Source: Flavobacteriales bacterium (GTDB lineage Bacteria > Bacteroidota > Bacteroidia > Flavobacteriales_F > PHOS-HE28). Taken from it: a stretch of DNA of 64,000 bases. This document shows, piece by piece, positions 16,790 through 52,147 of the stretch. Below the pieces are notes generated by a model. It made no database searches. It worked only from the letters and a program-made list of their open reading frames with translations, and was not told the DNA's origin. A program made the translations under genes and the position numbers. Location of the stretch: assembly GCA_016710685.1 (NCBI GenBank), contig JADJVC010000001.1, forward strand, positions 200,948 to 264,947, written 5' to 3'. The stretch's first letter is position 1; every line of letters begins with the position of its first letter.

Positions 16790-17322
16790 CCCTGTGGGTG
16801 TTTAGGTTTCCTGCCAAACCTCCAGAAAGAAAAAGTGCTTGCGCGCACGCAGAAAAAGCGGGCACTTGGGCACGCCCCTTTCCTGGAAGCGATCATCCAA
16901 TGTGCCGGTGACAGGTCTTCTGGCTCGCCATTCTCCCCGGCGCCTTCCCATCCTCCTTGCGGTGGACAGTGGCTTCGTGCCGGTTCGTTTCAGGCTTACA
17001 GCTTCAGGAAAAGCCCGGGATTTGCACCCGGTTCCCTTTTAACCCCGCTTGTTACCACGGAGATCATCAGCGCGGCGAAGGTAGGTCGTTATGGAGATCT
17101 GGTGTGGTGAGAGAAATTTCTGGTACAGCGTATCGGGTACTGGGTACCGAGTACTGCCGACCGCCTGGCGACTGCATCTGCCAGCTGCAACTGCCGACTC
17201 TTCTCAGCGCCCCTGGCTGCCGAAGGCATGCTCTGCGTCAAAAAGCTCCGTGAACCTCTGTGCCTCCGTGCCTCTGTGGTGTAAAAAACACTCCATCGCT
17301 CCCCATTACCTTTGATCTCCCT

Positions 17323-25756: not shown

Positions 25757-26127
25757 GCGTTGGTGATTTTGGTCTTGCAGGTGTTTGGCAAAGATGGGGC
25801 CAACCTGAAAATCAGCATGATCGAACTGGTACTACCGGCGGATTGCGCATCATTGGAACGCTGAAAGGCACGTGCGGCTATTCCTCAGTTGAAGAAGAAT
25901 GGGAGCTTCAAATCCTGTCGATCCTGTTAATCCTGCTCAAAACCCCGAAACTCCCGCAAGTGTTCCAGCCTTCCAGGAATGTGCGTTCCAACTGGGCTGG
26001 GTCACTTGTGGGCATCTTGATTTTATTCATAACACCTCCTAATCCTTTCCCCAAGCGCCGCCAAGACCGATCTTTGCGTCCAAATGATGGGCAAACCTCT
26101 CTTTCAGCCCAAAAGCTCCTGATCAAT

Positions 26128-29428: not shown

Positions 29429-31441
29429 ATGAGGAAAGGAAAACGCGCCAACATCCAGCCCACCGCTTGGCTTTTCGCCTTGGCGATCCCGGCGGCTTTG
29501 CTCTTTGTTGTTTTCTCACTGATGCCCTACGGCACCATGGTGAAACAGTGGCCGCTCAGCATCGGGCAGCCCGAAGTAATGGCCTTTCAGAAAGTGTTCG
29601 ACCGCCGCCCCGGCCAACATGCTACAGGCGAAGCGGGAACACTCAACCTCACCAGCTCCAACGGGAATTGCAAAACAGGGCAAGCCGTTGCAGCAACAGA
29701 AACCGACACCGCCACCGTGGAAGTGCGCGAATTGCAGGGATCCGATGAAGGAATTGAACTTGTAGGGAGCGATGCCCAGGGTTTGAACGGAGCTGAACGC
29801 ACGGCGCTGATGCCTGCGGATCTTTCTTCTTTGGAAGTGCTCTACGCACAAGCCGTTGCCGACTCCTTGCCCATCCACAGCGCGCCGCTTGACCTGGTGC
29901 GCCTTTCGCGTTGCGGCAGCGATGCCGGGCCATTCTTGATGCAAGAGGCAACATCGCCGAGCATGGTGGCGCGTTCGGCATCCGCGAGCGGAACATTTCT
30001 CGGACCGGACGGAAAACCGACAAACACCTCAACTACCGAAGCCACGGATGCGGCCCGCATGCCCAAGCTCACCGGCGCAGCCTTCGACACAAGTGCCAGC
30101 GCCGCCTTGGGCTTGCTCGCCTGCATAGAGCAGCGCAAGGATCTGCTGAATGCGGAGACCGGCGCACTTTACGATGGCATCACCGGGCGCATCGTGCCAT
30201 TGTACCGCATGGCCTACGGCGCGGATACTGCTGCAAATACGCAGCCCTTGGGCGTCGCGTTGCGTGAGGCTTTGGGCACGGCATCCGCACAAAAGCGCAT
30301 TCAGCGTATGGCGAAAAAGATCCATGCCGACAGCGCCGCTTGGGCACAACGCTTCGCCGCCATCGATTCGGCCCGTGTGCCCGTGTTGGCCAATGGCCGA
30401 AACATTGGCCTGGTGCAAGCTGCTGTTGACCGTACCCGCGAGCAGTTCATGCAGCGTCTGTTCCACCCAGATCCGGAAGCATTTATCGGACAGCCCGCGC
30501 AAACGACGCCTACCGAAAAGGCAACGTTGGATCCGTGGTTGGCACAATTCAAAAGTGGCTCCGACACCCTGCGTTTTGTGCGCGGCAAGTATGACATCGA
30601 CCATGATCTTGACATTCCCGCCGGCTACGGCGTAGTGCTGGAGAAAGGGACGCGCTGGAACATCGCTGCAGGTGTGAACATCACCATCCATGGGGCATTC
30701 CACGCAAGAGGCACCGAACTCAACCCGGTCTTCATTCGGCCGCTCGATGGGGTAGGGCCGTTCGGCAGCATTACGGTAGAAGGTACCGGCGACACGCGGG
30801 TGCGCCTGCGTGGTGTGCGCATCAGCGATGGGAGCGAACAATGGTCCAATGGCCTGCACCGGCCAGGCATGCTCAGCTTCGTGCTCTGCGACGTGCAAGT
30901 GGACAAGTGCAGCATCGGTAGTTCTTCGGGCACAGCATCCATAAGTGTTCAACGGGGAAATGGACATGTAACGGACAGTTACTTCATCGGCTCGCGCAAG
31001 TCTGCGCTGCTCTTCTTGGAAGCCCATGCAAACGTGGAACGATGTGGCTTCAGCGGTGAGGGGGTAACGGCCCCGGACGGCATCTCCAGCGTGGGGGCCA
31101 CCGTGTTGGTGCGCGGCTGCACGTTCAACCGCATTGGCGGCAGTGCCTTGGAGTTCACCGGTGGAAGCAGAGCGTTGGTTTCCGCCACCACGCTTACAGC
31201 TAACAACATCGCCTTACTTACCACGGAAGGTGCCGCAGTACACGTGGATGCCTGCACATTCAACGGCAACGCAACAGCGGTGTTAGTACGAAGCGCAGCA
31301 TCCGCATGGGGTGAGACCAACCTCGTAATGCACACCAACACCATGACCGGCAACGGCAAGGAAAGGGACGTGCAAGGCGGAACGGTGAAGGACGACCCCG
31401 CACCGGTAGATCCCGGGAAGTGGCTTGCCGGAGCGGAATAG
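29429..31441 (+). CDS. Membrane-anchored hypothetical protein with C-terminal right-handed parallel beta-helix (pectate-lyase/NosD-like) repeats
   Basis: N-terminal TM WLFALAIPAALLFVVFSLM; C-terminal repeated ~22-aa units (VLVRGCTFNRIGGSALEFTGGS / ALVSATTLTANNIALLTTEGAAVHVDACTFNGNATAVLV). Confidence 0.7.
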   Translation: MRKGKRANIQPTAWLFALAIPAALLFVVFSLMPYGTMVKQWPLSIGQPEVMAFQKVFDRRPGQHATGEAGTLNLTSSNGNCKTGQAVAATETDTATVEVRELQGSDEGIELVGSDAQGLNGAERTALMPADLSSLEVLYAQAVADSLPIHSAPLDLVRLSRCGSDAGPFLMQEATSPSMVARSASASGTFLGPDGKPTNTSTTEATDAARMPKLTGAAFDTSASAALGLLACIEQRKDLLNAETGALYDGITGRIVPLYRMAYGADTAANTQPLGVALREALGTASAQKRIQRMAKKIHADSAAWAQRFAAIDSARVPVLANGRNIGLVQAAVDRTREQFMQRLFHPDPEAFIGQPAQTTPTEKATLDPWLAQFKSGSDTLRFVRGKYDIDHDLDIPAGYGVVLEKGTRWNIAAGVNITIHGAFHARGTELNPVFIRPLDGVGPFGSITVEGTGDTRVRLRGVRISDGSEQWSNGLHRPGMLSFVLCDVQVDKCSIGSSSGTASISVQRGNGHVTDSYFIGSRKSALLFLEAHANVERCGFSGEGVTAPDGISSVGATVLVRGCTFNRIGGSALEFTGGSRALVSATTLTANNIALLTTEGAAVHVDACTFNGNATAVLVRSAASAWGETNLVMHTNTMTGNGKERDVQGGTVKDDPAPVDPGKWLAGAE

Positions 31442-31606
31442 CTCCTTACGACGGGCTGATCTTCTGTTGATCACTGGCGCGAGCTTTAGGCGCTATAGGA
31501 AACTGCGCTCAACAAGCGCCGTCCTTTCGTGTCAACGTGCCTTTCCTGAATTTCATCCGCATCGGTACCGCACTATTACCCGACCTTTGCCGTTCAGCAA
31601 ACAACC

Positions 31607-32392
31607 GTGAGGAAAAAGCGATCAACAAGTCAACACGATCTCAGCAGACGCTGGGGCCGTGCGGCCTTGCGCACGCTTGCCCCAGCGCTCTTGCTCTTTG
31701 CAACGCTGCAAACTGCACAGGCACAACTCGGTGTCACCACCTTCGGCATACAGTTGAAACCGGTGATCCCCTTCGGCTTCTTCGATCCGGTCACCACGCT
31801 GGAGCAGGGCACTTTAGCTTCCACGGTGGAACTGAAGGGTGGCATGGCATTCGGCATGGTGGTGCGCACGGGATTAACGAAGGCCATTTCCTTGGAGGTC
31901 GGTATAGACCAGATCACCCGCCGTTACGATGTGACACTTTCCAACGATACCAACGCGTACAACGGCTCCACGCAGATCCGCTTCGTGGGCTACGAAGTTC
32001 CGGTGACCTGCTTGGTGTACATCCGCCTCGGCGAAAAAACGTGGATGAACAACGCCTTGGGACTCAGCATGGATTTTTACCCCAGCGACGCGGTGCGGAA
32101 TTTCGATGCGGGGCAGGTCTACTACTACCGCCGCAACTGGGCGCAGCTTGGCGTGGTGGGCAACATCGGCGTGGAATACCGCACCGAAAAATCGGGCTAC
32201 TTCTATTTGGGCGGCACCTTCCACCGGCCCTTCCAAGACCTTGCGCTCGCCGAAGTGATCTGGACGGATCAATACCAGAACTACAGGCCGTACAGCATGT
32301 CGAAGTTCATCAACGGCAGCTACCTCACCGTGGACCTGCGCTACTACTTCCACGAAGACCCGGACAAAGCGCGGTTACGGAAGAAGCGATAG
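31607..32392 (+). CDS. Hypothetical outer-membrane beta-barrel-like protein
   Basis: Signal peptide ...LLLFATLQTAQAQ; alternating-hydrophobic strands rich in aromatic residues. The overlapping frame 31537..32400 has no signal and odd composition, so it was rejected. Confidence 0.6.
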   Translation: MRKKRSTSQHDLSRRWGRAALRTLAPALLLFATLQTAQAQLGVTTFGIQLKPVIPFGFFDPVTTLEQGTLASTVELKGGMAFGMVVRTGLTKAISLEVGIDQITRRYDVTLSNDTNAYNGSTQIRFVGYEVPVTCLVYIRLGEKTWMNNALGLSMDFYPSDAVRNFDAGQVYYYRRNWAQLGVVGNIGVEYRTEKSGYFYLGGTFHRPFQDLALAEVIWTDQYQNYRPYSMSKFINGSYLTVDLRYYFHEDPDKARLRKKR

Positions 32393-32455
32393 CCTTTTAA
32401 GGTTTCCGAGCCTTGACTATAGCTTCTGGGATTTTCAGCAACACAGAAATTACTG

Positions 32456-32521
32456 ATTGCTAATTCCTAATTCCGGCTGCCGACACGGCTTGCGGAATTA
32501 GGAATTAGGAATTAGCAATTA
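32456..32521. terminator. Unusual AT-rich long hairpin (19-bp stem ATTGCTAATTCCTAATTCC ... GGAATTAGGAATTAGGAATTAGCAAT) between convergent genes, overlapping the peptidase stop codon; putative bidirectional terminator
   Basis: Inverted repeat with GGAATTA direct sub-repeats, followed by a T-run on the minus strand and located between the stops of 31607..32392(+) and 32519..34687(-). Confidence 0.6.
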
Positions 32522-34687
32522 TTTCCCCCCGGCAGGATACTTCGGCACAACCCCGGTATTCTTGAAAAAGAACGCCCACTTGTCCGCTTGCTCGGCCACG
32601 ATCATGCTCGTAGGCTTTCCGGCACCGTGTCCGGCATTCGTTTCAACGCGGATGAACACCGGTGCATCGCCTTCCTGTGCAGCTTGCAGCGTGCTGATGA
32701 ACTTGAAACTGTGTGCAGGCACCACGCGGTCGTCGTGGTCTGCCGTCATCACCATGGTAGCGGGGTAGTTCGCGGGCTTGATGTTGTGCAGCGGTGAATA
32801 GGCGTGCAGGTATTCAAACTCCTCCTTGCTGTTGTCCGCGCTTCCGTATTCAGGCGTCCAGCCGAAGCCGGCGGTGAATTTCTGGAAACGCAGCATGTCC
32901 ATTACGCCAACGGCGGGGAAGGCCACCGCGCACAGGTCCGGGCGTTGGGTCATCACCGCGCCCACCAACAGGCCGCCGTTACTGCCGCCCTCAATGGCCA
33001 ATCGGTCCTTGGAGGTCCACTTCTGCGCCACGAGGTATTCCGCTGCTGCGATGAAATCGTCGAACACGTTCTGCTTTTTCTCCTTCATGCCGGCTTTGTG
33101 CCAGTCCTCGCCGTACTCACCGCCGCCGCGCAGGTTCGCCATGGCGAACACGCCGCCCTGTTCCAGCAAGATCATCCGGCTGGTGCTGAAACTCGGCGAT
33201 AGGCTGACGTTGAATCCGCCGTAAGCGTAGAGCAACGCCGGGTTCTTTCCATCCTTGGCCAAGCCTTTTTTATGGACGATGAACATGGGCACTTTGGTGC
33301 CGTCCTTGCTCGTGTAAAATTCCTGCTCGGTGGTGAATTGTTCCGGATCGAACTTCAACTCCGGACGGAAGTACAGGTCGCTCTTGCCCGTGGCGTAGTC
33401 GTATTTGTAGATGCTCCCCGGATCGGTGAACGAGGTGAAGCTGTAGAAGGAATACGTGTCTTCGCGCAGCCCGCCGAAACCGCCCGCGGTGCCGATGCCT
33501 GGCAAGGTGATTTCCTGCCCACCGGTGCCGTCTGTAGCGTAGCGGTAGATGCGTGTGGTGGCATCTTTCAAGTAGCTGGCGAAGAGGTTTCCGCCACCTG
33601 TCACAACACCTTCCAACAAGTCTTTTTTCTGGGGGATCACATCCTTCCAGTTCGCGCTGTCCGGTTGTGCCGGATCCACGCCCACCAAGCGGTAGTTGGG
33701 TGCGTTCACATCCGTCATCACAAGGAATTGCCCGCTCTTGGGCTCGAATGCCATGATGGATGTTTTGTGGTTGAAGCCGCGCTGTAGCGGGGTCCATTGC
33801 GTGGCCGGTGTGGGCAGCACGCCTTTGCGTAAGTCGTAGAAGTATTGCTCAAAGCCGTCGGTGCCGGTGCTGATGTACAACGTGGCGAATTCCTCGCCTT
33901 CAGTGGTGCCCGCGCCAACATAGAGGTTGGGTTCGGTATCGCTGGCCCACACCAGTGCGTCCTTCGCCTGCGGGTCGCCCAGCTTGTGGTAGTACACACG
34001 CTGCCACTGGTTAGCGCCGCTGAGTTCCATGCCCTTTTTCGGCTCCGGATAGCGACTGTAGAAAAAGCCGTCCTTGAACCACGCCACGCCGCTGAACTTG
34101 GCCCACAGCAGGGTGTCCGCCATCGGCTTCATGGACTTCAGGTCCCACAAAGTGATGTCTTGCCAGTCGCTGCCGGCCTTTTGGATGCTCACCGCCATGT
34201 AGCGGTCGTTTTTGCTGCTGCCCATCAAGCCGATGCTCGTGGTGCCTTTCGGGTCCACCACGTTGGGGTCGATGAACACCGTGTCTTTGCCCTCCAGCCC
34301 GTGGCGCACATAGATCACGCTCTGGTTCTGCAAGCCACTGTTGCGGTAGGTGAAAAACAGGTCGCCCACCTTGCTCGGCGCGCCGGTCTTGGGAAAGTTG
34401 AAAAGCTCCTCATACCGCTTCGCGATGGCGTCACGAAAGGGAATGTCCGCCAAATAAGCGTTGGTCACGGCGTTCTCGCGCTTCACCCAATCCGCCGTTT
34501 CGGCGCTGGTGTCGTTCTCCAACCAGCGGTACGGATCGGCCACTTTCGTGCCGAAGTAATCGTCCACCACGGTGGTGTCCTTGCGGGTTTCCGGGTAGGC
34601 GATCTTCTGCATGGGCTTATCGGTAGGTGCGGTGGAAGTGCCGCAAGCTGCGAGCAGCAGAACGGCGGCGGGAAGGGCTTTTTGCAT
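32519..34687 (-). CDS. Prolyl oligopeptidase (S9A prolyl endopeptidase), lipoprotein
   Basis: Signal/lipobox LLLAACG; beta-propeller N-domain; catalytic domain with GGSNGGLLVG (Ser) and ...ADHDDRV... (Asp), H in GHGAG. Confidence 0.9.
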   Translation of the reverse strand: MQKALPAAVLLLAACGTSTAPTDKPMQKIAYPETRKDTTVVDDYFGTKVADPYRWLENDTSAETADWVKRENAVTNAYLADIPFRDAIAKRYEELFNFPKTGAPSKVGDLFFTYRNSGLQNQSVIYVRHGLEGKDTVFIDPNVVDPKGTTSIGLMGSSKNDRYMAVSIQKAGSDWQDITLWDLKSMKPMADTLLWAKFSGVAWFKDGFFYSRYPEPKKGMELSGANQWQRVYYHKLGDPQAKDALVWASDTEPNLYVGAGTTEGEEFATLYISTGTDGFEQYFYDLRKGVLPTPATQWTPLQRGFNHKTSIMAFEPKSGQFLVMTDVNAPNYRLVGVDPAQPDSANWKDVIPQKKDLLEGVVTGGGNLFASYLKDATTRIYRYATDGTGGQEITLPGIGTAGGFGGLREDTYSFYSFTSFTDPGSIYKYDYATGKSDLYFRPELKFDPEQFTTEQEFYTSKDGTKVPMFIVHKKGLAKDGKNPALLYAYGGFNVSLSPSFSTSRMILLEQGGVFAMANLRGGGEYGEDWHKAGMKEKKQNVFDDFIAAAEYLVAQKWTSKDRLAIEGGSNGGLLVGAVMTQRPDLCAVAFPAVGVMDMLRFQKFTAGFGWTPEYGSADNSKEEFEYLHAYSPLHNIKPANYPATMVMTADHDDRVVPAHSFKFISTLQAAQEGDAPVFIRVETNAGHGAGKPTSMIVAEQADKWAFFFKNTGVVPKYPAGGK

Positions 34688-34809
34688 GGGGTGGGGGATG
34701 AAGGGGTAAAAGTAGCTTGAACCGTTTGGGCCGAGCGATTCGGCTGGATTGGATCTGGCAGAAGGCCATTAGTCTCAATGGGCGTGTGGCAGGCAACGCG
34801 GTTGGTATT

Positions 34810-35104
34810 GGTGCGGTAGATTCGCTGCCCCGAGACAAAAAGCGGAACCCACAAGCCGATCAGTTGATGGACGCCCGAAAATACTACTTCTCTCTTCTCA
34901 CTTTTATCGGCTCCCTAACGCTGGGTTTTACGGCATCGGCGCAGTCACTGCAGGTCTTGGACGGCACAAGCCGCCAACCCGTGGTGGGCGCGGTGCTGAC
35001 TTCGACGGACCCGGCGCGGCAAGCCACTTCGGATAGCACCGGCAGGGTAGACCTCGCTGTTTTTCCGGACAGTGCTTGGGTGCGCGTTGAACACATCGCC
35101 TTCC
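34810..35104 (+). repeat. Copy A of a ~300-bp direct repeat: degenerate 3' end of a T9SS CTD gene + promoter/RBS/first ~80 codons of the TonB-dependent receptor at 37692 (5' gene fragment 34867..35154)
   Basis: ~85% identity over the first ~110 bp and ~98% over the last ~190 bp with 37638..37936. The fragment encodes MDARKYYFSLLTFIGSLTLGFTASAQSLQVLDGTSRQPVVGAVLTSTDPARQATSDSTGRVDLAVFPDSAWVRVEHIAF and then diverges exactly where REP1 begins. Confidence 0.8.
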
Positions 35105-35744
35105 CACTAGCGCGAGCGTCCGCGCTCGTGCTTTCTCTACGCCGAAGCATCTAACTTTCCACCATGAGTGAGAGCTACAAATTTGTTGAGGGTCATGCTC
35201 ACTTCATCACGTTTGCGGTTGTGGGCTGGGTGGATGTATTCACACGACGCGCATATCCCGAGTTCCTATTGGAGAACTTGGCTTTTTGTCGAAAAAACAA
35301 AGGGCTTCGCCTTTATGACCTTGTGATCATGCCGAACCATTTGCATTTGATCGCAGCGGCTGCAAATGGCAGTTTGGGAGAGATTATGCGTGACTTCAAG
35401 ACCTTCACGAGCAAGGAACTGGTGAAGCGTATCGCCGCGAACCCCCAAGAAAGCCGGAAGGAGTGGATGCTCCGTGTGTTCCGCGAGCATGGTGCGGCAA
35501 ATCCACACAACAAGGACCACCAATTTTGGCAACAGAGCAACCGTCCGATCATTCTGGACAAGCCGGAATTGTTTGACCAGCGTAGGCGCTACCTTCGCGA
35601 GAATCCGTTACGTGCAGGCTTGGTAAATGATGAGTCAGCGTACATGTGGAGCAGTGCCAACCCGCATTTGGAGTTTGAGTTTGATGAAGCATAGAAACCG
35701 AGGAGATGGAAAAAGAGGCACGAGCGTGGACGCTCGCGCCAGTG
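35105..35744 (+). mobile_element. REP–RAYT–REP unit: REP-associated tyrosine transposase gene flanked by inverted REP hairpins
   Basis: REP1 35105-35132 CACTAGCGCGAGCGTCCGCGCTCGTGCT. REP2 35717-35744 GGCACGAGCGTGGACGCTCGCGCCAGTG is the reverse complement with 27/30 identity. Each folds into a ~10-bp imperfect stem. Confidence 0.75.
35164..35694 (+). CDS. REP-associated tyrosine transposase (RAYT; IS200/IS605 Y1-transposase family)
   Basis: 176 aa; HuH motif MPNHLHLI; C-terminal catalytic-Tyr helix RRRYLRENPLRAGLV; typical RAYT length; flanked by inverted REPs. Confidence 0.8.
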   Translation: MSESYKFVEGHAHFITFAVVGWVDVFTRRAYPEFLLENLAFCRKNKGLRLYDLVIMPNHLHLIAAAANGSLGEIMRDFKTFTSKELVKRIAANPQESRKEWMLRVFREHGAANPHNKDHQFWQQSNRPIILDKPELFDQRRRYLRENPLRAGLVNDESAYMWSSANPHLEFEFDEA

Positions 35745-36747
35745 TGGGACCTAACATCAGTCGCTTTCGACCCTGCGGACGAAAACACGATTTACATCGG
35801 TTATGCCTCGTCCCAATTCCTTTCCGGTTACAATGAACCTTATGGAAACAGGATGGTGTTTAAAATGGACGTTTCCGATTTGTCTCAATACCCAGCAGGA
35901 GATCTCCCATTTGATTGTCCGGGAACTCCTTGCGCCGACATTACCATGAACCTGCCGAATACGTTTATTTCCATTGGGGCCATGATGGCGGAGCAGGGTA
36001 GCGACGGTGGTCTCTACGTGGCTACTGAAGCCGGCGTGTTCTTTACCGATAACAAACGCATCGCAGCATTCAATCCTGTGCAGCCGGAAGATGCCGATGA
36101 CATGTCAAACACCAGTGGATGGGTAAAATTGGGCGGCAGTTTGCCACATGTCGGTTCGCGAGGGATTGAGGCGAACTACCAAGTGAATCGTGTGCGCGTA
36201 GGTCTGTATGGTCGGGGTGTATGGGAACATCATCTGCATTGCCCAGATACTTTGCAATTCAATGAAGCAGGGACATATGGAGCCGACAGGTACTTGGAGG
36301 CTATGCAAAATATCACTTCGGAAGCGATAGTTCCTACGGGACTCGATCTGAAGTATCGTGCTGGAGAGGAAGTCCGCCTTACACCCGGTTTTCATGCAGA
36401 ACCGGGTACACGCTTCCATGCCTTCATTCATCCTTGTGACGCACCCGGCAATAGCTTCCATCCGAAAGCGATGCAAGCTGGCGCACCGGAAGCTGAAATT
36501 GAAAACGAGTCTGTTTATGTGGGAATGGAACTTTACCCCAACCCCGCCAATGGGTCTTTCACAGTACGGGCCAATTTCATCTCGGAGAATGGAATAGCGA
36601 CCATTCGAGTATTTGGCCCTACAGGCAATTTGGCATTGTCATCGGTAATGCGTGGGCCGCAGCAGTTTATAGATTCCAGTGGCTTGCATGGCCTTTACAT
36701 GGTTGTGGTTGAATGTGCCGGTGTCCAACAGACCAGAAAAAATTATT
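35706..36747 (+). pseudogene. 5'-truncated T9SS cargo gene fragment (BNR/sortilin-like beta-propeller C-terminus + Por_Secre_tail CTD); no signal peptide, begins inside REP2
   Basis: ...GGLYVATEAGVFFTDNK..., then the CTD VYVGMELYPNPANGSFTVRANFISENGIATIRVF...LYMVVVE. The same frame continues without a stop into the next gene. Confidence 0.45.
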
Positions 36748-37647
36748 TTGCAATGAGAAAGTGGCTGTCACTCATCACCTTCTTTAGTATCAGTAGCGGT
36801 ATTTCTGCACAGTTCTACCCAGATTCCACAGGAACATGGTGCATCCGTGATTTGAATAATTCTACAGCATTAGATATAACCATGGAGATGAGAGTAGGTT
36901 ATGACACAATTATCAACGGGAATACCTATCAACTAATAGATGAATTTCACGGAGATGATAATTGGAGTGTACCTGAATATATTAAAACTTACTACGTTAG
37001 ATCAGATACTGCGGGAAATGGTTTTATCTACATTCCTGCTTTATCGGAAGAATACCTAACTGGAAATATTAATGTTAATGTTGGGGATACGATTGAAAAT
37101 TTATATATGGGGTTTTTAAGCAGCATTGCAATTGTTGATAGCGCAGTCATATTAACTAATGCGTCTGATACCGTGAGGCGCGTCTATGTTCGGCAACCAT
37201 GGATAGGCAATTCGTTTTCTTCAATTAAGTCATTTTGGCAATCTGGAATGGGTTGTTCATTTTGGACCATATATCAATTATGATGATTTTCAAGACTTGA
37301 CGTGTGTAATAGCCGACGGTCGATATACATTTTCATTAAGTATTCCAGGAAACCATGCCGATCAATTGCCAATTGTACCCTGCGAGTGTGTTGCAATTGC
37401 GACCAATGTGGAGGAAGGTATTAGCCGTGTACTCCCAAGTATCTTCCCCAACCCCTCAACCAGTACATTCACCATAAGGAATGCCTCGTGTTCAAACGAA
37501 ATAGCCGTATACACCACCACCGGCCACCGAGTATGGCAAGGCACCGGCAATACCATAGACCTAATCGCGCAGCCACCCGGCGTGTACACGGCGGTGGTGG
37601 CCACGGAGCGGGGTAGGCAGGCGGTGCGGTTAGTAGTGGTGCAGTAG
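36748..37647 (+). pseudogene. Mosaic T9SS cargo gene: low-GC (~35%) N-terminal module with signal peptide fused (across a frameshift near 37210-37285) to a GC-rich Por_Secre_tail CTD
   Basis: MRKWLSLITFFSISSGISAQ signal at 36748; AT-rich 36740-37420. Frame 0 stops at 37283, while frame +1 is open from 37207 and encodes ...SIFPNPSTSTFTIRNASCSNEIAVYTTTGHRVWQG...VRLVVVQ*. Confidence 0.45.
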
Positions 37648-37936
37648 ATTCGCTCCCCCGACACAAAACGCGGAACCCACAAGCCGATCAGTTGATGGAC
37701 GCCCGAAAATACTACCACGCATTTCTCACTTTCATCAGCTCCCTTGCGCTGGGTTTTACGGCTTCGGCGCAGTCACTGCAGGTCTTGGACGGCACAAGCC
37801 GCCAACCCGTGGTGGGCGCGGTGCTGACTTCGACGGACCCGGCGCGGCAAGCCACTTCGGATAGCTCCGGCAGGGTAGACCTCGCTGTTTTTCCGGACAG
37901 TGCTTGGGTGCGCGTTGAACACATCGCCTTTGAACC
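37638..37936 (+). repeat. Copy B of the ~300-bp direct repeat (authentic promoter and 5' end of the TonB-dependent receptor)
   Basis: See copy A. Confidence 0.8.
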
Positions 37937-40130
37937 TTTGCGGATCCGTACGTCGGCCTTGCGAAAGCTCGGCGGTCCGCTTATGCTCATGCCGCGCACT
38001 ACGGAACTGGATGCCTTCGTGTTTTCCGCCAGCCGCTTCAAGGAAGCCCGCCGGGATGTACCCGAGCAGATCGACGTGCTTGCCCGCAAGGAGATCGCCT
38101 TCGATGCGCCGCAAAGCACCGGCGACCTGCTGCAGAACAGTGGTGCGCTCTTCGTGCAGAAAAGCCAGATGGGCGGCGGAAGTCCCGTGATCCGTGGCTT
38201 CGAGGCCAGCCGTGTGCTGTTGGTGGTGGACGGCGTGCGCATGAACAACGCCATCTACCGCGCCGGCCATTTGCAGGACATCATGACGGTGGACCCGAAT
38301 GCCTTGGAACGCATCGAGGTGATCAGCGGCCCGGCCTCCGTGGTCTACGGCAGCGATGCCTTGGGCGGCGTGGTACACCTGATGACACGCAGCGCGCCCT
38401 TCGCCGACAGCGCGGGGACGCACCTGTTCCACGGCGGCGCATTTACGCGCTACAGCTCGGCCAACAACGAACGCACGGCCCATGCCGATGTGAGCTTGAG
38501 CAGCCACAAACTTTCGAGCTTCACCAGCATCACAGCCAGCGATTTCGGGGACCTGCGCCAAGGGAGCCAACGCCTTGCAGCCTATCCGGATTTCGGGAAG
38601 AAGCCGTTCACGGTGGACCGCATCAACGGCACGGACGTTGCCGTTGTGAACCCGGACCCGGATGTGCAGACCGGCACCGGCTATCAACAGTTGGACGTGT
38701 TGGAAAAACTGCGTTTCCGTAGTGGCGCGCACACCGTGCACCAGCTCAATCTGCAACTGAGCACCAGCAGCGATGTGCCGCGCTACGACCGGAGTTCTAT
38801 TTACTCCACGGACAGTGCGGGGGCGATCGTTCCCGCCAGTGCTGAATGGTATTACGGTCCGCAGCAGCGCTTGCTGGCGGCCTATACGTTGGAATTGGAA
38901 GGGCGCGGCTTCTATGATCAAAGCCACATCACCGCCAATGCGCAACGCGTGGTGCAAAGCCGCCACAACCGGAATTTTGGAAGCAGCACACGGAAAAACC
39001 GCAACGAGGAAGTCACCGTTTTCGGCCTCAATGCGGATTTTGAAAAGCGCTTCGCGAAACACGAATTGCGCTACGGCTTGGAGTTGACGCGCGATGCGGT
39101 GACCTCTACTGCGTTTGCAGAGGACATCGGAACGGGCGCCACTTCTTACCTCGGTTCGCGCTATCCGGGCACCAGCACCATGACGCATGCCGCGGTGTAC
39201 CTCACGCACACCGTGGAACTGAGCCGCAAATGGCTGCTGAGCGAAGGCGTTCGGCTTACCAATGTGGGCCTGCGCAGCACCTTCAGCGATGCGGCGGATT
39301 TCCAGTTCCTCAACGGCACGGTGGCGCAGGACAACACAGCGTTCAATTGGCGGGCAGGTGCGGTTTTTTCTCCGGAAAAATCGTGGCGCTTCACCGCGTT
39401 GGCGAGCACCGGCTTCCGCGCGCCCAACGTGGACGATCTCGGCAAGGTGTTCGACAGCACGCCCGGCCAAGTGATCGTGCCCAACCCTGATCTGCGTCCG
39501 GAACACACGCTGAACGTGGAAGCGGGCATCAACAAGATCTTCGCGGAACGCTACACCCTCGATCTGCAAGCCTTCCACACGTGGTACACCGATGCGCTGG
39601 TGGTGGCGCCGTTCACCGCGAACGGTCGCGACAGCCTCCTTTACGATGGCTCGCTGAGCCAAGTAACGGCATTGGTGAATGCGGGCAAGGCGACCATAAC
39701 CGGCGGCAGCGCGCAGTTGGCCGCCAAATTCACCACGAACTGGTCGCTCAGCAGCGGCATTATGTACACCTACGGGCGCGTTGAAACGGACAGCACACCC
39801 ACGCCGTTGGACCACGTGCCACCGGTTTACGGGCGAACAGCATTGGTATACTCCACAAAGAAGTTGCACGCCGAATTGTATGCCTTGTACAACGGCTGGA
39901 AACGGTTGGCCGACTACAGCGGAAGCGGCGAGGACAACTTGGCCAGCGCCACGCCGGACGGAATGCCAGCTTGGTGGACACTAAGCGTACGTAGCGAGTA
40001 TTCTTTTTCGCAGACCTTTTCGGTGCAGGCCGGCGTGGAGAATATCCTTGACCGCAACTACCGGGTTTTTGCCAGTGGCGTTAGCGCTCCTGGTCGGAAT
40101 GTGATGGTGGCGTTGCGGGTGGATTGGTAA
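37692..40130 (+). CDS. TonB-dependent receptor (N-terminal carboxypeptidase-like regulatory domain, plug, 22-strand barrel)
   Basis: Signal peptide FLTFISSLALGFTASAQ; plug motifs IEVISGPASVVYGSDALGGVVHL; C-terminal ...NVMVALRVDW. Confidence 0.85.
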   Translation: MMDARKYYHAFLTFISSLALGFTASAQSLQVLDGTSRQPVVGAVLTSTDPARQATSDSSGRVDLAVFPDSAWVRVEHIAFEPLRIRTSALRKLGGPLMLMPRTTELDAFVFSASRFKEARRDVPEQIDVLARKEIAFDAPQSTGDLLQNSGALFVQKSQMGGGSPVIRGFEASRVLLVVDGVRMNNAIYRAGHLQDIMTVDPNALERIEVISGPASVVYGSDALGGVVHLMTRSAPFADSAGTHLFHGGAFTRYSSANNERTAHADVSLSSHKLSSFTSITASDFGDLRQGSQRLAAYPDFGKKPFTVDRINGTDVAVVNPDPDVQTGTGYQQLDVLEKLRFRSGAHTVHQLNLQLSTSSDVPRYDRSSIYSTDSAGAIVPASAEWYYGPQQRLLAAYTLELEGRGFYDQSHITANAQRVVQSRHNRNFGSSTRKNRNEEVTVFGLNADFEKRFAKHELRYGLELTRDAVTSTAFAEDIGTGATSYLGSRYPGTSTMTHAAVYLTHTVELSRKWLLSEGVRLTNVGLRSTFSDAADFQFLNGTVAQDNTAFNWRAGAVFSPEKSWRFTALASTGFRAPNVDDLGKVFDSTPGQVIVPNPDLRPEHTLNVEAGINKIFAERYTLDLQAFHTWYTDALVVAPFTANGRDSLLYDGSLSQVTALVNAGKATITGGSAQLAAKFTTNWSLSSGIMYTYGRVETDSTPTPLDHVPPVYGRTALVYSTKKLHAELYALYNGWKRLADYSGSGEDNLASATPDGMPAWWTLSVRSEYSFSQTFSVQAGVENILDRNYRVFASGVSAPGRNVMVALRVDW

Positions 40131-51917: not shown

Positions 51918-52147
51918 ATTACCCAATCTCCCGCAAGTCTTCCCGGCTAACCAAGAATTGCGCTCCAACACAGACAGCCGGGGCGACTTGTGGGTTATGA
52001 AATTACTTGCATCCATGCTTTGCTCGTGAAGTCTTCGGACTTCACACAGAAACCGTTCAATACTTTACCAATTTCAGCAACCTAAGTTTCCGTCTAACGG
52101 CTGGCAATTAACGGAGAAAAAGCAAGTCCCTTGCTCATCCGCACCTC

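Follow-up and report, generated by a model that had tools for sequence, protein, structure and literature searches.

A compositionally mosaic type IX secretion cargo gene in a strain-variable cassette beside a RAYT element of uncultured Flavobacteriales

The stretch of DNA analyzed here, called the window, comprises 64,000 nucleotides of a metagenome-assembled genome (MAG) of a Flavobacteriales bacterium (NCBI GenBank assembly GCA_016710685.1, contig JADJVC010000001.1, positions 200,948 to 264,947 of the forward strand), and the gene in question, cargo2, encodes a putative cargo protein of the type IX secretion system (T9SS). Cargo2 occupies 36753-37647 and, like all parts of the locus described below, lies on the forward strand. 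It comprises a putative signal peptide (36753-36812), a module rich in adenine and thymine (AT-rich) that was modelled as all-beta (36813-37440), and a C-terminal domain (CTD, 37441-37647); after deletion of one T from the run at 37260-37263, the product has 297 aa, with a module of around 205 aa. An earlier note on this DNA had interpreted the gene as a horizontally acquired module shuffled onto a resident CTD rich in guanine and cytosine (GC-rich) and caught in a non-functional intermediate state. The sequence read there as a new signal peptide was present, starting at the ATG of MRKWLSLITFFSISSGISAQ at 36753 rather than at 36748. Judged by eye, MRKWLSLITFFSISSGISAQ has an n-h-c layout and an A-x-A-like cleavage site, and it is kept in the homologues.

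The composition of the gene changes abruptly along its length. The segment 36740-37420 had a GC content of 37.9%, slightly higher than the 30-35% counted in the earlier note, which was right about the low GC itself, and the coding part 36753-37283 had 37.1%, with values of 36/42/33% at the first, second, and third codon positions (GC1/2/3) and 33% in the lowest 200-nt windows. The background of the 64 kb averages around 58% GC; windows of the same length elsewhere in it had a mean of 57.7%, a standard deviation of 2.2%, and a minimum of 51.5%, which placed the AT-rich segment outside the variation of the window (GC z = -8.8, tetranucleotide distance z = +8.2). The other long open reading frames (ORFs) of the window had whole-gene GC fractions of 0.53-0.62, and its other T9SS cargo genes, used as a control, showed no step from module to CTD. 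The cargo2 CTD itself had 57.5% GC (GC3 67%), rising to 62% in the final 150 nt, and exceeded the curated cut-offs of both TIGR04183 (32.1 bits, cut-off 23) and PF18962 (29.8 bits, cut-off 27). The Por_Secre_tail match covered residues 77-142 of the 144-aa C-terminal reading, that is, the extreme C-terminus, so that the second GC-rich CTD proposed earlier was confirmed. The CTD starts with the Pro-Asn-Pro (PNP) motif CCCAACCCC (37447-37455), and its tail (37501-37650, 62% GC) shared 85-95% DNA identity with unrelated or highly divergent cargo genes in related genomes. These data support the description of cargo2 as a compositionally mosaic gene. Many further CTD-bearing genes, of type A and of the CHU_C type, lie in the window and its flanks.

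Upstream of cargo2 lies cargo1 (35749-36752, 50% GC), a remnant comprising the C-terminal 335 or so codons of a large T9SS cargo gene. It carries a 3-coathanger-stack domain (36297-36437, GCX_COOH E = 2.6e-14) and a type-1 CTD (36531-36740, Por_Secre_tail E = 1e-4), and it is homologous to the tail of a 690-aa gene on contig L006. Its 5′ end is truncated at a REP-associated tyrosine transposase (RAYT) element, where REP denotes repetitive extragenic palindromic sequences, and in other assemblies it forms a 349-aa ORF starting at 35706 within the inverted repeat of that element. In most cases, an ATGA overlap links genes of the cargo2 type to a preceding large cargo gene of the BNR/sortilin-like 3-coathanger type. 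Downstream, the TonB-dependent receptor gene (37692-40130), which forms the conserved right flank of the cassette, encodes 812 aa from the listed TTG at 37692, with the ATG at 37695 as the likely start; it matched TIGR01785/TIGR01786 and the Plug and barrel families and was 83% identical in DNA to the syntenic gene of contig L005.

The RAYT element (35103-35748) consists of a left REP-like hairpin and inverted repeat (35103-35131), a Y1 transposase ORF of 176 aa (35164-35694), and a right inverted repeat (35718-35748) ending in CAGTGTGGG, with the termini of the element reading CCCAC...GTGGG. Its ORF scored 82.6 bits against NF047646, the model for REP-associated tyrosine transposases (cut-off 80), and 26.3 bits against PF01797 (cut-off 23), and the HLH motif (NHLHLIA) and the conserved Tyr (RRRYLRENP) were recognized by eye. 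Its two arms of 27 nt (35105-35131 and 35718-35744) show 93% complementarity, and the palindrome GCGAGCG-n3-CGCTCGC occurs in both. Two direct repeats of 315 bp frame a low-GC island made up of the RAYT element, cargo1, and cargo2. The left copy (34788-35102) contains a remnant of the last 10 CTD codons (stop 34817-19), an intergenic stretch, and a 5′ fragment of a TonB-dependent receptor gene, a pseudogene starting at around 34867; the right copy (37616-37930) comprises the last part of the CTD tail, the intergenic stretch, and the beginning of the functional receptor gene. The two copies are 93% identical, and their mismatches fall almost entirely within the first 150 nt.

Ten long loci of the same species were retrieved by a look-up of the RAYT protein, and the locus was found in three haplotypes. 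In Hap0, seen in contig L003 of a 99.7%-identical strain, the prolyl oligopeptidase gene stands directly beside the TonB-dependent receptor gene, with one repeat copy and no island; that single copy is 99.7% identical to the left copy of the window. HapB is the arrangement of the window and of contigs L025 and L026. HapA (L019-24, L027, and L028) carries the TonB fragment, a REP doublet, and the RAYT element (99.7% identical to that of the window), followed by a CTD-only remnant cut just before the PNP motif and a 477-aa DUF5122 (delta-60-repeat) cargo with the same CTD subtype as cargo2. The left end of the element (L019 9894-10746) varies too, with the REP doublet and 103 extra bp in HapA, and some strains have a 172-bp tandem duplication of the 3′ end of the RAYT element. 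Three different sequences adjoin the identical RAYT end CAGTGTGGG, namely the interior of cargo1, the CTD-only remnant, and the 172-bp tandem copy of the 3′ end.

HapA and HapB are identical through the right end of the RAYT element at 35748 and can be aligned again from the PNP motif at 37447. From there they differ at 24, 13, and 12 positions per 100 nt over 37447-37746, with the last difference of the cluster at 37763, beyond which differences fall to around 1-2 per 100 nt (98-99% identity). Since the divergence between the haplotypes is confined between the RAYT end and 37763, the exchanged segment is 35749-37763, which includes the CTD of cargo2 itself, the intergenic region, and the signal-peptide codons of the receptor. 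The part 37501-37763 has 59% GC, and the immediate donor of this imported DNA was therefore a GC-rich relative.

Intact copies of cargo2 were recovered repeatedly. In a search of 5.8 billion proteins, the repaired cargo2 matched P0001 (297 aa, 99% identity, 100% length coverage) and P0121, likewise an intact 297-aa protein with 99% identity, and the contigs of P0001, L001 and L002, matched the window over 36270-37654 at around 99%. In total, an intact, 99%-identical unit of module and CTD was present in five assemblies (L001, L002, L025, L026, and protein P0126) and in three genomic contexts, and the gene was also assembled in JGI, Logan, and ENA contigs. The NCBI MAG contigs L025 and L026 contain an intact 349-aa cargo1 ending in TRKIILQ before the stop codon, an intact 297-aa cargo2, and the ATGA overlap between them.

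The copy in the window has two reading-frame defects, both of which the earlier note had seen correctly. The A6 run at 36737-36742 has one A more than in four other assemblies, which abolishes the ATGA stop/start overlap closing the upstream gene, so that cargo1 loses its stop and the ORF from 35706 continues past its own CTD into the cargo2 ATG. The T4 run at 37260-37263, which is T3 in L001, L002, L025, and L026, shifts the frame within the 37210-37285 interval named earlier, and the original cargo2 frame stops at TGA 37281-83. Both defects are +1 homopolymer insertions private to the source MAG. Contigs L025 and L026 align colinearly with 8.6 kb of the window (30000-38620) at 99.65% identity, with only two indels, at 36737 and 37260; the further differences from L001 and L002 are a 4-nt substitution, one more substitution, and a few changes at the extreme end of the CTD. 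Substitutions private to the window are TTAA for GCCG at 37116-19 and another at 37155. The source MAG carries MBK8580469, MBK8580471, and MBK8580473, and a second cargo2 copy on a contig of 1,154,578 bp (proteins MBK8580806 and MBK8580807), which is split at sites other than those of the window copy into P0122 (170 aa) and P0124 (57 aa). Both indels of the window fall in a 1.4-kb block that occurs twice in this MAG. Exact look-ups of the TonB-dependent receptor, of the 116-aa C-terminal ORF, and of P0122 gave no match.

Full-length homologues of cargo2 have 294-313 aa and 34-43% identity, and all are from uncultured Flavobacteriales; compared with P0002-P0016, cargo2 showed 29-44% identity over 83-100% of the length. 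The family shares the motifs FYPDS..W, YYVRSD..G.GY, GDT, VDS, and FWQ.G.G...GP and one conserved Cys, and its CTD subtype has the pattern PPGVYTAVV.T..G...RLVV.R with a tail ending in GVYTAVVATERGRQAVRLVVVR. A HMMER scan with the CTD alone yielded 107 matches among 1.84 billion representative proteins, a CTD-only query of a word-indexed database yielded two, and scans of metagenomes and genomes with narrow back-translated patterns gave 4 and 6 loci. A hidden Markov model of the module recognized it in 43 of 120 collected proteins. All 35 carriers of at least 250 aa have the same CTD subtype, and the pairing of module and CTD is therefore old; none of these 35 proteins looks Lys/Asn/Ile-rich, as one encoded by a low-GC host would. 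The family does not extend beyond one clade of uncultured, GC-rich Flavobacteriales, and many of these bacteria were sampled in metagenomes of activated sludge or wastewater.

The compositional step was present in every one of the 15 family loci examined, with 39-52% GC in the module (GC3 33-59%) and 56-64% GC in the last 150-210 nt of the CTD tail (GC3 65-86%), in loci that have 49-60% GC outside the gene (52-60% in the eight longer loci). The final 150 nt or so of the tail lie level with, or slightly above, the composition of the host. Therefore, the GC step is a trait of the family and not a fresh graft. Within the family, cargo2 is the most AT-rich allele (38% vs. 41-52% GC).

The tails behaved differently from the modules. 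The last 45 codons were nearly identical among proteins with very different modules and also in unrelated delta-60-repeat cargo (P0013, P0015): P0002 and P0007 had 56% identity in the module and 51% in the tail, whereas P0002 and P0012 had 25% in the module and 89% in the tail. Tail identity tracks the host lineage, not the phylogeny of the module. The modules of two paralogues on L001 have 36-43% protein identity and no detectable DNA similarity, whereas their tails match at 93% of third codon positions, compared with 62-84% for orthologous tails in other genomes, which is suggestive of gene conversion within the genome. An exchange of the CTD type was also seen. The 296-aa gene of L005 (5114-6004) has a module with 93.8% DNA identity to that of P0005 in L004 (6001-6936) and another CTD type; the breakpoint is the invariant CCCAACCCC, beyond which the CTD is of the type found in cargo1 of the window. 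Modules and CTDs thus do recombine at their boundary in this family, as a lasting feature of the family rather than something under way at the window locus. A different rearrangement ending in the conserved tail was observed in P0017 (182 aa, L006 6001-6549), an internal-deletion derivative of a 296-aa member (L012 9977-10867) in which the middle of the module is fused straight to the CTD tail.

The module had no relative in Pfam, NCBIfam, or the sequences of the PDB, with Pfam finding only Por_Secre_tail and the PDB only CTDs. A first structure model from 14 sequences (predicted local distance difference test, pLDDT, 68.6) was too weak to be used, and an AlphaFold2 model from an alignment of 30 sequences reached a pLDDT of 86, with an all-beta module and a CTD mostly at 86-97 per 10-residue block. 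When this second model was compared with the PDB using Foldseek, the best match of the CTD was 8glk_D, the NucA CTD in a T9SS translocon complex (template modelling score, TM, 0.81; root-mean-square deviation, rmsd, 2.0), and the mirolase CTD 8qb1_A also matched. The same search gave no convincing structural match for the module; the candidate 3fzx, with a YmcC-like fold, was unconvincing (TM 0.26-0.34, rmsd 9.5).

Taken together, we consider cargo2 a normal member of an unannotated family of T9SS type-A cargo proteins of around 300 aa, with a probability of roughly 0.7. The competing proposal, that a module from a low-GC Bacteroidota was recently grafted onto the resident GC-rich CTD and that the defects mark an unfinished intermediate, gains something from codon-position values such as a genome of around 38% GC would be expected to give, from the GC break at the CTD start, from the alternative cassettes becoming alignable at the PNP motif at 37447, and from the CTD swapping at this motif elsewhere in the family. 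It is nevertheless very improbable, given that the GC step is family-wide, that the gene with module and CTD together is intact and 99% identical in five assemblies and three contexts, and that both defects are single-base homopolymer insertions private to the source assembly. No low-GC donor was found among the 5.8 billion proteins, where low-GC Bacteroidota matches had been anticipated: the best non-self matches had 40-43% identity and came from the same GC-rich clade, and all relatives share the GC-rich CTD subtype. The CTD is not resident either; it travels with the module in all three contexts, and as it differs by 13-24% from its counterpart in the alternative haplotype, it came in with the cassette. 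Of the horizontally acquired, shuffled module, what survives is that the DNA is exchanged and variable between strains and that the family does swap CTDs, not that a one-off event took place here. An assembly chimera, with reads of a low-GC organism joined to a GC-rich genome, could be suspected from the abrupt change in composition, the 93%-identical direct repeat around the island, and the strain mixtures in the samples, and was rejected with its probability close to nil: the arrangement was assembled independently in L025 and L026, the gene was recovered from three further sources of contigs, and full-length homologues exist for the single ORF that spans the AT-rich part and the CTD.

The missing stop and the frameshift are probably unpolished errors in a two-copy repeat and otherwise very recent decay; in neither case are they a by-product of domain shuffling, and the non-functional shuffling intermediate was not borne out. 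Two copies broken at different sites, compared with five intact assemblies, suggest that indels were left behind in a repeat beyond the reach of short-read polishing. If both indels were real, the cassette would be decaying in the source strain, with cargo2 a recent pseudogene and cargo1 fused to it. The island does contain pieces that have already decayed, namely the TonB 5′ fragment and the truncated cargo1, the window copy with its private substitutions is a distinct allele, and the long intact ORFs across the remaining window argue for good assembly quality. However, both changes are +1 in A/T homopolymers and the sole indels in the 8.6 kb shared with L025, they fall in the duplicated block, and an independent loss of both copies while all others stayed intact is less parsimonious than a failure of polishing, which makes real decay a distinctly less probable explanation. 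Several points weigh against our account of the gene and its defects. Without the reads, a sequencing error and a true frameshift cannot be told apart; the substitutions at 37116-19 and 37155 show real divergence of the window copy; and that the source MAG is a long-read assembly was inferred solely from its contigs of 0.4-1.15 Mb. The gene-conversion signal rests on 45 codons (42 vs. 37 matching third positions) and is statistically not strong, the history of a Campbell-type insertion or tandem duplication considered below is one of several that fit, and the cause to which we attribute the AT-richness of the modules is likewise inferred. Finally, an unsampled low-GC source of the cargo2 allele is possible, given that it is the most AT-rich allele.

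Under the preferred reading of cargo2 as an ordinary family member, whole cassettes would be replaced between strains by homologous recombination in conserved flanks, with the RAYT element on the left and the CTD tail, the intergenic stretch, and the 5′ end of the TonB-dependent receptor gene on the right. The modules are hypervariable accessory sequences that may drift toward AT as genes of the flexible pool, and the tail would be kept by purifying selection for recognition by the T9SS, together with homologous recombination or gene conversion among tails. The direct repeats and the empty-site allele may have arisen through excision and integration of a small circle by a single RecA-type crossover in the 315-bp homology, or alternatively through tandem duplication followed by deletion. 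Contig L002 (1,693 bp) is terminally redundant, with positions 1-128 recurring at 1566-1693, and thus represents a 1,565-bp unit of cargo2, linker, and cargo1 remnant; the linker, which is also seen in L001 (1178-1277), consists of two diverged 50-bp copies of the intergenic/TonB-start motif found downstream of the CTD. This redundancy is compatible with circle or tandem-array routes, and L002 was not accepted as a true circle, the repeated linker of a tandem array explaining it equally well. In other loci, the CTD stop is still followed by the intergenic motif, by the opening codons of the TonB-dependent receptor gene (GATYAGYTGATGGACGCNCGAA), and then by a conserved hairpin of around 70 nt, which suggests that a TonB-adjacent locus repeatedly served as the template from which units were copied.

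This conserved element of around 70 nt (CTCACAAGTGACCCAGCC...GGCTGGAACACTTGCGAGAG) forms an imperfect hairpin in which one stem pair covaries, from A-U to G-C in 4 of 13 copies. It flanks genes of the cargo2 family as direct copies in many loci: L005 4975-5058 and 6981-7064, L001 73-143 and 1301-1370, L002 1094-1163, L008 324-400 and 1628-1691, L004 6985-7039, L012 10931-10998, L006 6680-6746, and L013 6956-7032. The window contains a copy at 25951-26013 (minus strand). It had no Rfam match and may be a REP-like element, a recombination site, or an RNA.

A more active part for the RAYT element can be imagined, in which its Y1 HUH nuclease, nicking at the terminal hairpins, fixes the left boundary and causes adjacent deletions and duplications, making the locus a transposase-anchored site at which secreted proteins are diversified. 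This would account for three different sequences abutting exactly the same element end and for the variable left end with the HapA REP doublet and 103 extra bp, and more than 20 contigs carry the ORF intact and with 100% conservation. Yet plain homologous recombination between conserved flanks suffices without a nuclease. The hairpin has no further copy besides the two flanking ones in the 64-kb window at up to 3 mismatches, and the RAYT element was met at a single locus only; an active RAYT thus seems unlikely. Further still goes the idea that the locus and the family arrays of relatives form a dedicated system diversifying T9SS proteins, in which cassettes of AT-rich module and homogenized tail would be excised as small circles and re-inserted, the RAYT/REP sequences and the 70-nt hairpins would mark, perhaps create, the breakpoints, and the PNP motif and the homology of CTD tail, intergenic stretch, and TonB start would serve as anchors, giving an integron-like economy of HUH nuclease and RecA. 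We regard such a system as speculative and rather improbable.

Several other features of the window lie outside the cassette. A cobalamin riboswitch (RF00174, 110.8 bits) was found at 16893-17083 on the minus strand. An AATTAGG-rich inverted repeat of 35 nt with 83% complementarity and a 3-nt loop (32448-32520) sits where the ORF 31537-32400 and the prolyl oligopeptidase gene converge and probably acts as a terminator in both directions. A 117-bp stretch at 51932-52047, in a 718-bp gap without an ORF of at least 90 aa, is 81% identical to L004 5848-5963, which lies between mazG and P0005; it had no Rfam match.

The locus resembles several known systems in part. Rhs/CdiA polymorphic toxins combine a conserved segment of host composition with an AT-richer variable tip; the tips are swapped by recombination in the conserved part, and orphan remnants accumulate. 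By analogy, the CTD-only ORF, the truncated cargo1, and the TonB 5′ fragment may be seen as remnants of this kind, whereas the geometry here is inverted, with the variable part at the N-terminus and the conserved part at the C-terminus, the route is the T9SS, and there is no immunity gene or toxin domain. As in integron arrays, the genes are small, AT-richer, and arranged in tandem in the same orientation, in relatives they are split by the imperfect 70-nt hairpin, and L002 suggests a circular unit. However, the units carry remnants of neighboring genes, a sign of homologous and not of site-specific recombination; neither the ORF map of the window nor the gene tables of the flanks showed an integrase, although no integrase-model search was made in either, and the hairpin consensus lacked attC core sites (RYYYAAC/GTTRRRY) by eye. 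The integron interpretation was rejected on the last two grounds. The RAYT element is typical in being a single-copy gene above the equivalog cut-off of NF047646 that is flanked by inverted hairpin-forming REP-like sequences, and atypical in bounding a variable cargo cassette with no dispersed REPs within 64 kb; RAYTs are not known to have such a boundary role. Cargo2 is built like other T9SS type-A cargo, in which a Sec signal peptide (putative in cargo2) precedes a passenger and a beta-sandwich CTD of around 70 aa closes the protein, but unlike them the modules of its family lie 10-20 GC points under the host genome in every member examined.

The closest documented parallel is Porphyromonas gingivalis, in which T9SS surface proteins (gingipains, HagA) undergo domain rearrangement and allelic exchange between strains (Dashper et al., 2017, PMC5266723). 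In both cases, T9SS cargo genes with a conserved CTD vary by modular recombination and by homologous exchange of divergent alleles. In P. gingivalis, a naturally competent pathogen, adhesin modules are shuffled within large proteins, whereas at the window locus whole small genes and their CTDs are exchanged as a cassette beside a RAYT element, with a marked compositional step. Swapping of CTD types at the PNP motif was not reported in PMC5266723.

Domain shuffling in progress was not upheld at this locus: elsewhere the gene persists as one stable unit, and errors of sequencing probably account for its defects. For annotation, the lesson is not to take a frameshift for biology when it falls in an AT-rich repeated stretch of a long-read MAG. 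What emerges is a family of small T9SS cargo proteins that had no annotation and whose all-beta fold, modelled with confidence, is without a match in the PDB, together with a well-sampled cargo-cassette locus with three haplotypes beside a RAYT element in an abundant wastewater Flavobacteriales population. The exchange in L005 provides direct evidence that CTD types are exchangeable at the PNP motif, and the family is a clean case of an intragenic compositional step, joining an accessory-like AT-rich module to a CTD tail that tracks the host lineage. As to function, cargo2 most likely acts as an accessory protein that is secreted through the T9SS or attached to the surface and is under pressure to diversify.

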